A DNA stretch of 64,000 bases, taken from positions 29,188 through 93,187 of the forward strand of contig CAYGNG010000004.1 in assembly GCA_964351225.1 (NCBI GenBank), in the 5' to 3' direction. Position numbers: made by a program. Source of the DNA: an uncultured Gammaproteobacteria bacterium. Its GTDB lineage: Bacteria; Pseudomonadota; Gammaproteobacteria; CAYGNG01. Below are positions 1 through 6,000 of this stretch, piece by piece; the first letter of the stretch is position 1; every line of letters starts with the position of its first letter.

Positions 1-3000
1 TTCAGGTTGTGTTGATTTTTATAGCACAATCTTTACCATTGCAAATGTATGGCAAACTTTTTTTAATGATGGCGACGCTAATCCAGGGTTAACGCATTTA
101 CAAAAAATTTTAAGAAATGCTTTCAGCTTTATTAATACCCCAAGAAAAGCCGTTCAGGATGAGCAAAATACGCTGGCCTTGCTGCTCGCAGAAGATTTTC
201 CAGTGGATGAGGTTGAAAGACGCCGAACCGATAAAAACTTCTGCCAACAAATCGCTGAAAATATTGTTTCAAGAGAACATATATTGCATGAGGTCGAGCC
301 TAATATAAAAACAACCTTCATTAATGTGATAGTCGCTGGATCACAGTTTTTTAGCGTTGCTGGAGTCAATGTTAATCTTTATCAAAGTTTTTTTCAGATC
401 GCTCAATTCCTTCTTAATCCATTCCGCTGGTTAGTCTCTTATTTGCCCGAGAAAGACAGCACCCAATTTCTTAATCTGCAGGTGCGATATGATAATCGAC
501 GAGTAGTAGAGATTTTACAGGCCCATAAAATTGGATCGCGCTTGCTGCTCTCGAAGTTACAAGGTTTTTCTAGATCAGGGCTTTATCAAAAACAGCATCA
601 ATGTGCAGCAGCGACTCAGCATTACATTGTGAAAACGCTATTGCGCTGGCGCGATCCGGATTGGCGCAACGCTTTTCTAGGGGACAACTATCTCGATTGG
701 TTGACTTTTCTGGAATTCTTTTTCCAAAACCCTTTCCCCAGTAAACCAAGCCGCTATGTTCATCAGACATTAGTGGTTCGGTTAACGCACGAAGTCAAGC
801 AGGGCGATCAGCTTAAATCGAACAATCGTTTTTTTTCGCTGGTTGATAAATATAAGCCAACCGCAGTTGATAGAAACAAATTCACTTGGCGAACCATTGC
901 GGATGCAAATTTTGGCACTCAAGACATGCCAGAAAAACAGGCCAGAGAAACCATTAATAAAATTCTATCGGATCCCGCGTTTAATTCGGGTATCCCGGTG
1001 ACTCCACCAAACTACGCTTTTAAACCAGGCGTAAAAATGCTTATTCCACAGCAACAAGTGCCAGTGCGATTTCCCTTGTTTTCTGAGCGGAATGTTCAAC
1101 CGTGGTTTAAAGTTATTTTTGATAGTGAGGAGGGTTGGCACGCATTTCGGGATAAATACCCTTTTTCACAAAATCCAGCTCATCCTATTCGCTACGTAAC
1201 CCAGGCAAAAGCGCTGCGCTTGATTGCTCGTGGCAATCAACTGCGTCGAAATGCTAATGTTTCATACGAAAAGCTAACGGATATTGCACTGGCCGATAGT
1301 ACGTTGCAACCGCAGCCACCGATAGCAGTGAATAGTAGTGATTCGTTTACTCGACGCATTTATCGGTATTTTATACCAAGTGGCATAACCGAATGGCAAT
1401 TCGCACTTTCGAACTTTGAAGAAGCACTTGCTATTGGCTCAGCGAAAGGAGATAGTTTAACATTGATTAGCCCCATAGCAGCACGATTTCCTATCAACAT
1501 AAGTAACCATAACAATCTTACCCCAGGCGGCATTGCGCATGAAATAGACGGTTCAGCAGTAGGGACACCAACCAACGCATTTCGTCATGCACTGTGGCAA
1601 GCGTTAATTACTGCGCGATTTGATGATCGGATCGCTCAAGAGGCTGGCGACTCACATGAATCAGGTGGCGCAGACGCTTTAAACCGATATCAGATTGCTG
1701 AAAATAATGGGGTAATAACCGTGAGCGTGCCCGCTCAAATCGATTTTACTAACCGTGCCATGGCCGACCGAACAGCGGATTTGTTAAATAACATTCTAGG
1801 TCGGACTATTGGGCTTAAAAACAGAACAGCATCCAATCGAGAAATGGCCATTAGGGTGCTAGATTATTATCGAGACCATGGATTGTGGCAAATTGAGTTT
1901 CGCTCCAGTGACTACCGTCCTAACGAACATTTTCCCATAAGACAAGTAAGAGTGTCTCCTGATACTTACTCAGCTGCACATGCTAGATTGTTTCAATTAG
2001 GTGATTCAGGTTTCACCTTGGCAAGAGAGCGTGAGTTGAGAGACGAGCAGGGGACAAACGGACCTCAGCCCTAAAGGAGTTATATTATGTTAACAACAGA
2101 TAATGAAGTATTTCGTTTTGCGAGTGTGCGTCCCCCCCTAGGAAAAAAGAAAGAACCCGCGGGAGGTTTTTTTTTAACCCAGCTTCCTGGCGCAGATCGT
2201 AAAGAAACTGAAAGCGAAGAAGATGATAGCAAAAGCGCTAGTGAAGCATATCCTGATATTCTTAATGCTTTATCCCCTGAACAGTTGATCGCAAGAGCAA
2301 AAGCGTTAATCAAAAAAGACGATGGCATTGACTTCGAGAAACTAAAGTTCTTGATCAGTATAAAAGATAAGCTAAAAGGGAGTAAAACGGAAGCCAAACA
2401 AAAATTTGTAGAAGTTGCCGATCAGTATCAACAGCTTCATGCTTTAAAGATAAAATTATGGAATCTCTTCTATGCTTATACGGCTTTGGGTATCGAGAAT
2501 CGCAAATATTTAATGCTCTATGATGCCTTGCGGATTTTATGGGCAATGGAGTGTTTAAATAAATCAAACTGCAACGACAATCTTTTCAGTGAGGCGCTAT
2601 TTCCCAAAATACGTGTACCGATCCCTAAGTCACTGCTAAAGGTGCTCGCTAAAACGGAACAAGTCGGTGAAGAACAAACTCATAAAAAGGAGAGAGAGCG
2701 GCTACAGGAAATGCTAGATAGCAAAGTGAAAGAGTATGATGAAATACACAGCACCATTGATGAATTGTTAACCCTACAACGTGATGTCAGCCATAAGCAA
2801 CCCACTATCACCGATAGAACCACCGGCAAATCCTTTTTTAAAAAAACCAAGCTCAACTCAGAGGTGCGGGTTATTAATCCTGGCTATGATGCTTTTTTAT
2901 TTCAGGATGAGAAAAAACAACCTGACGTCTATGAGCGCTTAAGCCAGACGGCTAAAAAAGTCTTACTTCCTAAAAAAAAGCAATTTCATCAGACAGAAAC

Positions 3001-6000
3001 GCTGAAAATAGCAGACGATTTAAAAACAACCGCTTATCTGCATATTATAAAAACCATTGAGCAACTTCCCTACAACTGTAACGCTCAATTAAATATTGAG
3101 CCATTAATGAAAAGAGCAAAACAAGAGAATGTGCCGGAGCAATATTATAAGAAAAAACTCGCGCAGCCAGCGATAGCAGAAGAAAACGCAACGACTGCCA
3201 ACGCGTACTCGTTAAGTGACTCTTCAGACGAGCAAATAAACTTCCACGGGATCAGAGTCTTAGGCGTAACGGATTTATTAATGGTGAAAGAAAGCTTGGC
3301 AGGTTATGAGCTGGGTGAAATTGCACATATCGAAAACATTCTGGCTCGTGAAACGCAAACCCGATCGCAGCTGGTGACTTCTGAAAGAGAAAATACTTTT
3401 TCTGAAAGGGTGGAGGTCGACAACTTAGAGAAAGAGGACACCAAAAGCACCGAACGTTTTGAAATGCAACAAGAGGCAAAAGAAACGATAAAAACCAAAA
3501 CGGAAGCAGAAGCCGGCGCTTCTCTAAGTGGCAGCTATGGCTTCGTTTCATTTGAAGTAGAAGGTAGCTTCCGTTATAGCAGCGATAAAACGCGCGTAAC
3601 GGGATCCGCTTCGCAGCTTGCTAAAGAGGTAACCAGTCAGTCTGTCCGGCAGATCCAAGAAAAAACAACCAAAGAAAGGACTTTGCGCACAACGACAATG
3701 ACTGAAAAACGCAATACGCATGCCATCGATAACTCTCAAGGAAGCCAGCATCTGGCTGGTGTTTATCGCTGGGTGAATAAGAACCACCAATTCCACCTGG
3801 TCAATTATGGCCGTCGTTTAATGATTGAAACCATTATTCCAGAGCCAGCCGCTTTTTATCGAAATTTAGCAACGAGAAACACCCCAATAGGGATCAATCT
3901 AAAAGAGCCAGAAGCGATAACCATTACCGCCGACAACCTCACTAAAAATAATGTTGCTTACTATGTCAAACTTTATGGCGCCGCTGGCATTAAAGCTTAT
4001 CCTGAAGCTTCCATTACCCTCATGGGAGAATCCGCCTTTGTTGTTGATCAAAAGAAAGATCAAGTGACCGCGAGACAAGAAACGCTACTGACCATTCCAG
4101 AAGGTTATCAAGTTTCTAGTTATGATGCTATGTTTGGCCGTATTCATTTTAAAGATACATCTTCTTGTCACGTTTATATGAATGGACAGTTATTTCCTAA
4201 TGTCAGCCTAACTGGGGTGGAAAGAGAAATAAAATTTTCTTGCAGAGGGTCGTTTGCAGCTTTTGGCTTGTCGCTTTCAGTAAAATGTATACCGACACAA
4301 GAAAAAATTCAAAACTGGCAGCTGGAAACGTTTGAGGCCATTACGCAAGCCTATGAGCGTAAGCTTGCGGATTATCGTGAACAATTGGCCGCGGCAGAAA
4401 TTCAAACCGGGATCCCCATTGCGAGTCGCCATCCAAGCTTAAATCGCAAAATTGAACGTGAGGAATTGCATAAAGGCGCCATAAGAATTATGACCCAAAA
4501 CTTTGCTTCTACTCGGATAGAGGGAGCGTTGTATGCTAATGAACGTTTCGATGCGATGCGTACGGGTGAGTATGGCTATCCAGAGCTTAATGTTAGTGAG
4601 GCAGAGAAAGAAGGTAAAATCATCCAGTTTCTTGAGCAAATGATCGAGTGGCCTAATATGACTTATCGTTTTTATCCCTATCTGTATGCTCGAAAAGCAA
4701 TATGGGATGAGATCTATCCTTTGTCTGATCCAGCCGATGCCGCGTTTACTGACTTTCTTCGAGCCGGTGCCGCAAGGTTGTTATTACCCATTCGCCCTGG
4801 ATACGAAGAAGCGTTTTTTTACTATATGAGCACCAAGACCATTTGGCTAGGGGAACACCCTCCAACCATCGGTGAGGAACGTTATGTTTCTATCATTGAT
4901 GAAGTTAGAGAAGAGCAAGTCGTTGATCCGAACAATTTACCCGACTATGATCCTGAAAGCAATTCAACCGCTTATCCTTGTGTGATGGATCGTTGGCAAG
5001 CTAAAACACCGACGAGTCTGTTGTTTTTACAACCAACGCCCAATTTGAATCTGACAGCACAACAATTGAGTGAAATCCAATCCGGTGAACATTTGTCAAA
5101 TTTCGTTTCGTCCGCTAACGATGAAGAAGAAGATAATGAAGATGAGGATAATGATATACCAGAAAGTCTCTCTGGCGTTTTGGCGTCAAAGTAGCTTATC
5201 TGCCACAAATTATTTTTTGATGCGTTGATGCTGGCAAATGCATGGTTGCGGAAAATAGCGCTAATGAAAGCCACCCCTTAGTTCCGATAATAAAGATTAT
5301 CGGAACTAAGGGGTGCTTACCGTGATTGCTTGGAATTACGATGGTGATTTTCTTTTCCCTAAAAATCCCGCAGCGTGTCGAGCTCGCTTAGATCCACTTA
5401 AATAGTCTCCTTCTTTTGTCAACACGGTTCCTTCGCGCTTTCTATTCTCTTGGTTTTGTTGGAATGACGCTAAGGCCTCTTGAACTTCTTGAATTGACTG
5501 GCTTGAATCATCATATTCATCTTGATCAATAACTTTTACTATGAGTTTCATATTAGCCCCTGGATATATGATGCAAGCCTTATGCGTCATGCTGGGATCT
5601 TTAAAGAAGCTCATGTTTCTTGACAGATCCTTATTTGTTTTACAAATAGAGAAACTATAATCCCGCCACCGCCCTAGAGCCAATAAAGAAGGATTAAGAT
5701 CTTTGCTTTGTTTGTAAAGTGCTGAGCGTTCATGAAAAAAAGTCATGCTGCATTCAATTTCAAGATATTCTTTCAAGCTTAAGCAATAGCCAGAATCTTC
5801 TAAAGGATTATTGTTTTGAGCTTCCTCACCAGTTTTTATCTTCTGCTTACTCCCTACAATATCAACTGTGGTGCTTAATAAAGGTTTTAAGCGCGATAAA
5901 CTATCAAATCGCAATTTTTTTTCTTGCTTCTTCTCTTCTTCCTCAAAATACGCCGAGGCTCGCCTAGGGTAATCCTCTACTAGAAACATGGGTTTTGGCC

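Follow-up and report, generated by a model that had tools for sequence, protein, structure and literature searches.

How might an envelope toxin that carries no export signal reach its target? This question is raised by two adjacent genes, ORF1 and ORF2 (ORF, open reading frame), at the left end of a 64,000-nucleotide stretch of DNA from an uncultured gammaproteobacterium (assembly GCA_964351225.1, contig CAYGNG010000004.1, positions 29,188 to 93,187), which was analyzed as a whole and is referred to here as the window. Sequence comparisons indicate that the ORF1-ORF2 pair is a two-gene toxin cassette in which ORF1 is the effector, and that ORF2 is a constant component linked, in many phyla, to an interchangeable gene for an envelope- or protein-attacking enzyme. 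An initial annotation had described the pair as two large unknown proteins without a recognizable enzymatic motif. For ORF1 this description has to be revised, as the protein carries a DUF6973 domain matching the toxin BteO on a decayed Het-C-family scaffold. For ORF2 it stands: neither profile searches nor structure prediction yielded a family or fold match for this large protein.

ORF1 carries a BteO-type toxin domain

ORF1 is cut by the edge of the window; it reads in frame 2 of the plus strand without interruption from base 2 up to a TAA stop codon at 2072-2074. The 690 codons present (2-2074) form the C-terminal part of a protein of 1046 amino acids (aa), the first 356 of which lie upstream of the window. 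As the initial annotation had advised, the missing DNA was obtained, in this case from a public contig (L001) on which the ORF2 sequence is present identically and on which the complete ORF1 occupies positions 3152-6292.

The C-terminal part of ORF1 (aa 824-1046 of the full-length protein; nt 1403-2071, plus strand) matches the Pfam family DUF6973 with an E-value of 4e-11 and a score of 43 bits against a cut-off of 27. The stretch NAFRHALWQAL...SHESGG, which had earlier been singled out as looking conserved, forms the core of this domain (NAFRHALWQAL at nt 1574-1606, SHESGG at nt 1652-1669). A DUF6973 domain profile built from 31 sequences matched the structure of BteO (PDB 9uu0) with an E-value of 2.8e-54. 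BteO is a Bacteroides fragilis type VI secretion system (T6SS) effector that is toxic only in the periplasm, targets the C-terminal domain of OmpA-family proteins, and is neutralized by BtiO, an OmpA mimic; alanine mutants in R143, H144, H167, E168, D187, and D191 lost both toxicity and OmpA binding (PMC12541434). ORF1 retains all six of these essential residues within nt 1574-1780 (plus strand): the R-H pair in NAFRH (1574-1588), the H-E pair in SHE (1652-1660), and the two aspartates in ADRTAD (1763-1780). In an alignment of 31 sequences (A5), the columns corresponding to these six residues (R61, H62, H85, E86, D122, and D126) are invariant or near-invariant. The C-terminal 220 residues of ORF1 are therefore best described as a predicted intact BteO-type toxin domain, and from BteO one would expect it to bind the OmpA C-terminal domain and to be toxic only in the periplasm.

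When the last 223 residues of ORF1 were used as the query of an exhaustive phmmer search, 547 relatives were returned. Among the 150 relatives listed, which are proteins of 142-1843 aa, nearly all have the DUF6973 domain at their C-terminus or not far from it, and in large relatives it comes after pretoxin-HINT (PT-HINT), TcdB_toxin_midC, DUF6443 plus RHS repeats, or SLH. Such a placement after Rhs, TcdB-like, PT-HINT, or SLH regions is the standard architecture of exported polymorphic toxins. We found no literature on DUF6973. Together with the ORF1-ORF2 cassette, these Rhs, Tc-like, and HINT toxins extend the recently solved BteO domain far beyond the T6SS loci of Bacteroides.

The toxin domain sits on a decayed Het-C-family scaffold

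The preceding part of ORF1 (nt 2-1402, plus strand, for aa 357-823, the portion within the window) was traced through proteins encoded next to relatives of ORF2. From residue 1 to about residue 820, ORF1 is homologous to the products of the genes upstream of the ORF2-type genes of Neobacillus kokaensis (locus L008; phmmer 1e-115) and of a Verrucomicrobiota metagenome-assembled genome (MAG; locus L013; 2e-92), with 32-34% identity. These two partner proteins match Pfam Het-C at 5e-11 and 2e-8, respectively. Matches to the ORF1 scaffold in six other loci are weaker, and several ORF1-type homologues match Pfam Het-C; a Pfam Het-C search with ORF1 itself gave no match. A word-based search with full-length ORF1 retrieved only ORF1, and a metagenome scan with an ORF1-type profile produced no match; the homologues surfaced in the fetched ORF2-family loci.

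Het-C proteins are related to zinc phospholipase C and S1-P1 nuclease and possess the signature HxD, HxxxDxxxH (Zhang et al., 2012, PMC3482391). We examined this catalytic signature as four His and three acidic residues (PMC3482391) and found it to be kept in the homologues and lost in ORF1. Upstream of the window, YPHEHLD of the homologues reads FPHQQFD in ORF1, and LGHALHQVEDFFAHS reads LGYALHQVNKFFERT; at nt 533-562, GCHSLLAKDH has been replaced by GSRLLLSKLQ. The key losses are HLD to QFD, HQVEDFFAH to HQVNKFFER, GH to GY, and CHS to SRL. Since the homologues keep the Het-C signature and DUF6973 was not found in any of the Het-C-type ORF1 homologues compared, ORF1 is a Het-C effector with a decayed active site of its own and a newly acquired, different C-terminal warhead, a clear example of toxin evolution.

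ORF1 and ORF2 form a coupled and co-conserved pair

ORF2 (2087-5194, plus strand) starts with the ATG at 2087 and encodes a protein of 1035 aa that belongs to a family of approximately 1000-aa proteins without a name. It is separated from ORF1 by 12 nt (2075-2086), one fewer than previously stated, and its ribosome-binding site, AAGGAG (2074-2079, plus strand), overlaps the stop codon of ORF1 and is located 7 nt before the ATG. This tight arrangement bears out the proposal that the pair is a single transcription unit. A strong, near-consensus σ70-like promoter (TTGACA-18-TAGAAT, 11 of 12 matches) is found at L001:3069-3098, 54 nt before the ORF1 start; given this promoter and the coupling of the genes, ORF1-ORF2 can be regarded as a self-contained two-gene operon. 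Just upstream of the promoter, padR- and pspC-type genes are present on the same strand of L001.

The pair converges, as had been reported, on a helicase gene, namely a 2369-aa ORF on the minus strand (5336-12445) whose sole Pfam match is ResIII. Between the convergent genes lies a hairpin (5272-5315) with a perfect 20-bp stem and a 4-nt loop, which was found in a terminator scan and satisfies the U-tract criterion on the minus strand only; it is probably a terminator. A stem of 20 bp is unusually long for an intrinsic terminator.

The initial annotation had raised the question of whether the two genes occur together in other genomes, and they do. ORF1-type and ORF2-type genes adjoin in nine loci: here, in L008, in L013, and in six more. 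The conserved cores nearest to that of ORF2 (L008, L012, L013, and L011; 39-41% identity) are all accompanied by an upstream partner, and in L008 (core identity 40.6%) and L013 (39.5%) this partner is the closest homologue of ORF1, located immediately upstream at distances of 21 and 55 nt. As the nearest ORF2 cores thus adjoin the nearest ORF1 homologues, the pair is co-conserved across three phyla.

The ORF2 family is associated with interchangeable toxin-type genes

The protein database holds 28 homologues of ORF2 of about 970 aa, all of them without a name, and a scan of one genome per species revealed at least 581 ORF2-family loci. They are distributed over Chloroflexota, Bacteroidota, Actinomycetota, Bacillota, Cyanobacteriota, Acidobacteriota, Verrucomicrobiota, and Pseudomonadota, with Legionella anisa, Chimaeribacter, and Nitrosomonas among the named carriers. 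Members of the family are present on 14 plasmids, among them p01 of Bacillus thuringiensis HD-771 and a haloarchaeal plasmid. The relative on the latter, from Natronorubrum bangense (NZ_CP031306.1:570674-572377, hit H9), shares 29% identity with the ORF2 core over 89% of its length, so that the family crosses the domain boundary. A tblastn search of 50,697 phage genomes gave no match, and only 5 of 2.9 million IMG/VR contigs contain a member. Our literature searches found no paper on the family and none for the accession numbers of its members.

To survey the neighborhoods, ORFs were called and clustered in 86 fetched loci, and linkage was counted over 82 of them. A tightly linked neighbor of at least 200 aa on the same strand was present in 64 of the 82 loci, with 60 such genes downstream and 9 upstream of the ORF2-type gene. 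The partner families comprise patatin (10 members), protein-arginine deiminase (PAD; 4), and PT-TG pre-toxin (3), the last otherwise known from secreted toxins (PMC13483458). Het-C, phospholipase D (PLD), M23 peptidase, Amidase_3, PhoD-like phosphatase, amine oxidase, and OmpA-domain proteins were also found, and several partner families have no assigned function. The same partner can accompany family members of distant hosts: partner cluster 85 is shared by B. thuringiensis and Chimaeribacter, and cluster 4 by Tsukamurella, Anaerolineae, Verrucomicrobiota, and Bacteroidota. Organized as mobile two-gene units, the cassettes occur on plasmids and in variable regions, adjoining helicases, methylases, and resolvases.

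Two plasmid loci illustrate this arrangement. On p01 of B. thuringiensis HD-771 (L087, 7990-12041), a 967-aa family member overlaps a 383-aa partner by 4 nt; this partner clusters with those of Chimaeribacter, which have a strongly hydrophobic segment at aa ~298-334, and a DEAD/DEAH helicase gene is found among the neighbors, along with several DUF genes. On plasmid 5 of Tsukamurella tyrosinosolvens (L088, 5921-10999), a 957-aa family gene and a 361-aa partner gene are immediately followed by a DNA polymerase IV gene. In our window, a dinB gene is likewise located about 7 kb from the pair, a parallel that may be a coincidence. In seven loci (L019, L026, L032, L036 from Legionella anisa, L038, L041, and L062), the ORF2-family gene is divided in two, with one gene of ~350-600 aa for the N-terminal part and another of ~395-684 aa for the core; in four of the seven, a gene of one cluster encoding ~110-140 aa comes next.

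ORF2 consists of a conserved core flanked by variable regions

Close to its N-terminus, ORF2 carries the peptide VFRFASVRPP (2108-2137, plus strand), which is conserved in the family alignment A1 and conforms to the consensus hydrophobic-F-K/R-F-x-x-hydrophobic-R-P. Under a strict pattern, at least 41 of 90 family ORFs have this peptide among their first ~40 residues, and it is visible in more; its conservation confirms that ORF2 starts with the ATG at 2087. The following region (aa 18-388; nt 2138-3250, plus strand) is variable, poorly conserved in A1, and mostly helical, with helices modeled at low confidence. The conserved core of the family (aa 389-985; nt 3251-5041, plus strand) contains GEIAHIENILARE within nt 3263-3352 and FLEQMIEWPNMTYRFYPYLYAR at nt 4628-4693, and the tblastn matches of 80 loci span aa ~389-982. 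Its invariant residues in A1 are E411, E422, H545, K565, R577, E850, and D884. In addition to the N-terminal F-K/R-F..RP peptide, ORF2 has the family signatures GEIAHIENxLxGE and FFEQAFEWxNMTYxFYPYFW (A1, A4).

Two AlphaFold models of ORF2 show very long β-hairpins, a β-sandwich, and an α/β C-terminal part; the predicted local distance difference test (pLDDT) score is 59.6 for the full length and 66.8 for the core. The initial annotation had proposed a coiled-coil core rich in K, E, and T. The composition holds, with K+E+T accounting for 35-36% of aa 180-240 and 420-560, and one long helix of 55 residues is modeled at aa 181-235; for aa 390-585, however, the model gives, at low confidence, very long β-hairpins and helices instead of a coiled coil. 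The β-sandwich (aa ~643-736; nt 4013-4294, plus strand; pLDDT 75-90) is the sole part with any fold resemblance, a weak local likeness to H-type lectins and to phage decoration and tail-fiber-tip sandwiches (target-normalized TM-score ~0.5, E ≥ 1e-3). Foldseek searches of PDB and BFVD with ORF2 gave nothing at E ≤ 1e-3, profile searches of PDB gave no match, and there was no match to Pfam, NCBIfam, PADLOC, or PHROGs. No Pfam domain recurred at E ≤ 0.1 among the 28 family members; a single Binary_toxB_2 match (E 0.05, 1 of 28) is noise. We also looked for a short motif common to the ORF2 N-terminus and the partner termini, in the style of amyloid signaling, and found none.

The C-terminus of ORF2 (aa 986-1035; nt 5042-5191, plus strand) lies beyond the core and is an acidic, disordered tail with pLDDT values below 50. 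Its acidic block, DEEEDNEDEDND, corresponds to aa 1012-1023 of 1035 (nt 5120-5155) and is located 13-24 residues from the C-terminus, exactly where it had been placed before. Between positions -26 and -9, ORF2 has 11 acidic residues, compared to 0-5 in every other large ORF of the window. The tail is a lineage-specific appendage and was not found in the 23 homologues aligned with ORF2 in A1. Acidic tails are present in family members from Actinomycetota (L034, L043, and L049) and Chloroflexota (L027).

Relation to known toxin systems

ORF1 resembles BteO (PDB 9UU0; PNAS 2025, PMC12541434) in that its C-terminal domain belongs to DUF6973 and keeps the R-H, H-E, and D...D residues. BteO itself is small and has a transmembrane helix at its N-terminus; its gene is part of a T6SS locus, where the gene for the periplasmic immunity protein, btiO, comes next (PMC12541434). 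In ORF1, by contrast, the domain ends a 1046-aa protein of cytoplasmic type, and ORF2 comes next; in the window ORFs that were scanned, we found neither an immunity gene (a small ORF with a signal peptide) in the operon nor a T6SS gene. With the polymorphic toxins, including those with Tox-HET-C (PMC3482391), ORF1 shares a constant N-terminal module joined to a swapped-in C-terminal toxin domain, as well as a scaffold homologous to Het-C. It differs from them in possessing no Pfam trafficking domain, no signal peptide, no immunity-sized ORF downstream, and no Het-C signature, and its constant partner is a separate gene of ~1000 codons from an undescribed family. Because an immunity gene, a trafficking domain, and a T6SS context are all missing, ORF1 represents neither a BteO-type effector-immunity pair nor a canonical polymorphic toxin locus. 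ORF1 is a new architecture of the known BteO/DUF6973 domain and of Het-C toxins; the layout of the cassette is familiar, its constant component ORF2 is not.

Two other groups of systems have a comparable layout. Tc and binary AB toxins place a large conserved component beside an enzymatic one, do so without export signals, and occur in Gram-positive and Gram-negative bacteria, as does the ORF2 cassette; ORF2, however, is similar neither in sequence nor in fold to TcA, TcB, TcC, or B subunits of the anthrax-PA type. In the defense systems Lamassu, CBASS, and Avs, which are mobile, one conserved large protein is combined with a variable effector (patatin, PLD, or transmembrane). Unlike these, ORF2 has no PADLOC match and contains neither an NTPase nor an SMC or cyclase domain, a number of the effector types in its cassettes are those of exported toxins, and its family is nearly absent from phages.

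A possible carrier for toxins that lack export signals

According to the model that we favor, the BteO-type domain of ORF1 would bind the peptidoglycan-anchoring C-terminal domain of OmpA-family proteins from the periplasmic side and so destabilize a Gram-negative envelope. Since ORF1 lacks a signal peptide and BteO does no harm in the cytoplasm, some device must move ORF1 across a membrane. We propose that ORF2 is this device, a carrier or translocator of the ORF1 effector comparable to the B subunit of binary toxins, because it is the only constant candidate in the cassettes; we estimate the probability of this reading at about 40%. The N-terminal peptide, the long β-hairpins (one of them, at aa 473-498, amphipathic), and the lectin-like sandwich might then serve assembly, membrane passage, and target binding, and the acidic tail would be a lineage-specific add-on. 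In support of a carrier, several partners are cell-wall hydrolases or contain domains typical of exported toxins. The modeled hairpins, the amphipathic stretch, and the lectin-like sandwich are compatible with a carrier and do not prove it. Tentatively, we extend this proposal to the family as a whole, which may constitute a new effector-handling machine that is independent of known secretion systems, acts either by translocation or by triggered lysis, is found in Gram-positive and Gram-negative bacteria and in at least one archaeon, and would draw on a shifting repertoire of envelope-attacking enzymes from neighboring genes.

A number of observations speak against a carrier function. The fold of ORF2 matches nothing, and its models are only moderate (pLDDT 60-67). 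The raised β-moment at aa 473-498 is a weak signal with similar peaks elsewhere in ORF2, so that a membrane-inserting amphipathic hairpin at this position was retained merely as a lead. Neither a secretion apparatus nor any other recurrent gene was found around the ORF2-family loci, and in most cassettes no immunity gene follows ORF1 or the effectors, unlike in canonical interbacterial toxin loci. No signal peptide or transmembrane segment was detected in ORF1, ORF2, or the main partner families, and all-against-all phmmer searches between the partner clusters revealed no docking domain common to the partners. The N-terminal region of ORF2 does not behave as a partner-specific adaptor either, as similarity was seen in 2 of 28 same-partner pairs and in 89 of 1386 different-partner pairs. 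Finally, anti-phage defense systems, too, are typically laid out with one conserved component and effectors that can be swapped.

This last point leads to the reading in which the cassette brings about self-directed lysis or abortive infection, with ORF2 acting as a cytoplasmic sensor, and possibly as a pore former from the inside, that, once set off by phage infection, for example, would free or activate its envelope-destroying neighbor (in this cassette, the OmpA-binding BteO-type domain) against the producer. Such a suicide module needs neither signal peptides nor immunity genes, a large conserved protein combined with exchangeable effectors (patatin, PLD, and transmembrane-hairpin proteins) is the arrangement usual in defense, the occurrence of the cassettes as mobile units on plasmids and in variable regions near helicases, methylases, and resolvases is in its favor, and the signal-less M23 and amidase partners resemble holin-dependent endolysins. 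We nevertheless consider it somewhat less likely than the carrier: PADLOC gave no match for ORF1 or ORF2 even at E ≤ 1, PT-TG, DUF6973, Het-C, and PAD are typical domains of exported toxins, domain searches found no NTPase or other recognizable sensor domain in ORF2, and the family is missing from the phage genomes searched and rare in IMG/VR. The same rarity, together with the absence of PHROG, phage tblastn, and full-length viral fold (BFVD Foldseek) matches, led us to reject a phage structural protein, an identity that the initial annotation had named as one that would overturn its view of the pair. That ORF2 might be a structural protein of a phage or mobile element, or a housekeeping protein, with no functional relation to the adjacent ORF1, draws on the weak likeness of its β-sandwich to phage decoration and tail-fiber-tip domains; the translational coupling observed here and the adjacency of the two gene types in nine loci across phyla largely refute it, and we give it almost no weight.

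A further reading concerns the acidic tail, which the initial annotation had likened to the E-block of Dot/Icm substrates, an EExxE motif near the C-terminus that is proposed to be read by DotM (PMC7251119). On this reading, which does not exclude a translocator, ORF2 would be recognized through its C-terminal E-block and injected into a eukaryotic host. Like the E-block substrates of Legionella (PMC7251119), ORF2 has an acidic block near its C-terminus with a literal EExxE (EEEDNE, within the segment 13-24 residues from the end), along with hydrophobic residues at -4 and -5, and the tail looks like an add-on to an imported family. The L. anisa family member ends in TTEDDDDNA, a small acidic block likewise lies close to the end of the window's ankyrin-repeat protein, and the ankyrin-repeat, leucine-rich-repeat (LRR), and giant proteins encoded in the window suggest a host-associated lifestyle. 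The tail, however, lies outside the conserved core, and similar tails occur in members from Actinomycetota and Chloroflexota. These phyla are not known to carry Dot/Icm, and the likeness to an E-block therefore stands as a matter of sequence, whereas the Dot/Icm interpretation is unsupported. No dot/icm gene was present among the ORFs scanned in the 64-kb window, the ankyrin matches to Dot/Icm effector models are generic repeats far below cut-offs, and the lineage of the source organism remains unplaced, with the best named relatives of its glutaminyl-tRNA synthetase being only ~60% identical. The target of the ORF1 toxin domain, moreover, is a bacterial envelope protein and not a eukaryotic one. 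All told, delivery of ORF2 by a Dot/Icm system appears improbable.

Other genes in the window

The convergent 2369-aa ORF (5336-12445, minus strand) has its ResIII helicase-type segment at aa 296-426 (E 3.8e-6) and no NCBIfam match; some 2000 of its residues are unexplained. Next to it on the same strand is a trio of genes (12540-18471) encoding a DinB-type DNA polymerase IV of 357 aa, an ankyrin-repeat protein of 649 aa, and a protein of 971 aa without a family match; stops and starts overlap at 13610/13613 and 15556/15559, and the trio therefore looks like one operon. The small acidic block of the ankyrin-repeat protein (C-terminus ...KRPDDNEEKSGSISKLAPR) is located at -15 to -11.

A 444-aa ORF without a family match (21973-23307, minus strand) has a tail rich in Ser, Asp, and Glu (SERGSESDCDGSSSDSESPRSP...), and a 687-aa LRR protein is encoded at 60838-62901 (plus strand); both are candidates for host-interaction proteins. 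The glutaminyl-tRNA synthetase (32154-33830, minus strand) has its best named relatives, from a Gammaproteobacteria MAG and Desulfuromonas, at 59-61% identity, which indicates that the source organism belongs to a poorly sampled lineage. An NCBIfam scan of the window, made to place the organism, returned only generic ankyrin matches.

Implications

The family to which ORF2 belongs is found in at least 581 species-level genomes and has neither a Pfam or NCBIfam model nor a solved relative, yet it is tied to many kinds of toxin-type enzymes, from lipases and cell-wall hydrolases to an arginine deiminase and BteO-type and PT-TG toxins. If ORF2 indeed delivers or unleashes the effectors encoded beside it, the cassettes would represent a new means of antagonism between bacteria or of programmed lysis and would explain how envelope toxins without export signals reach their targets.

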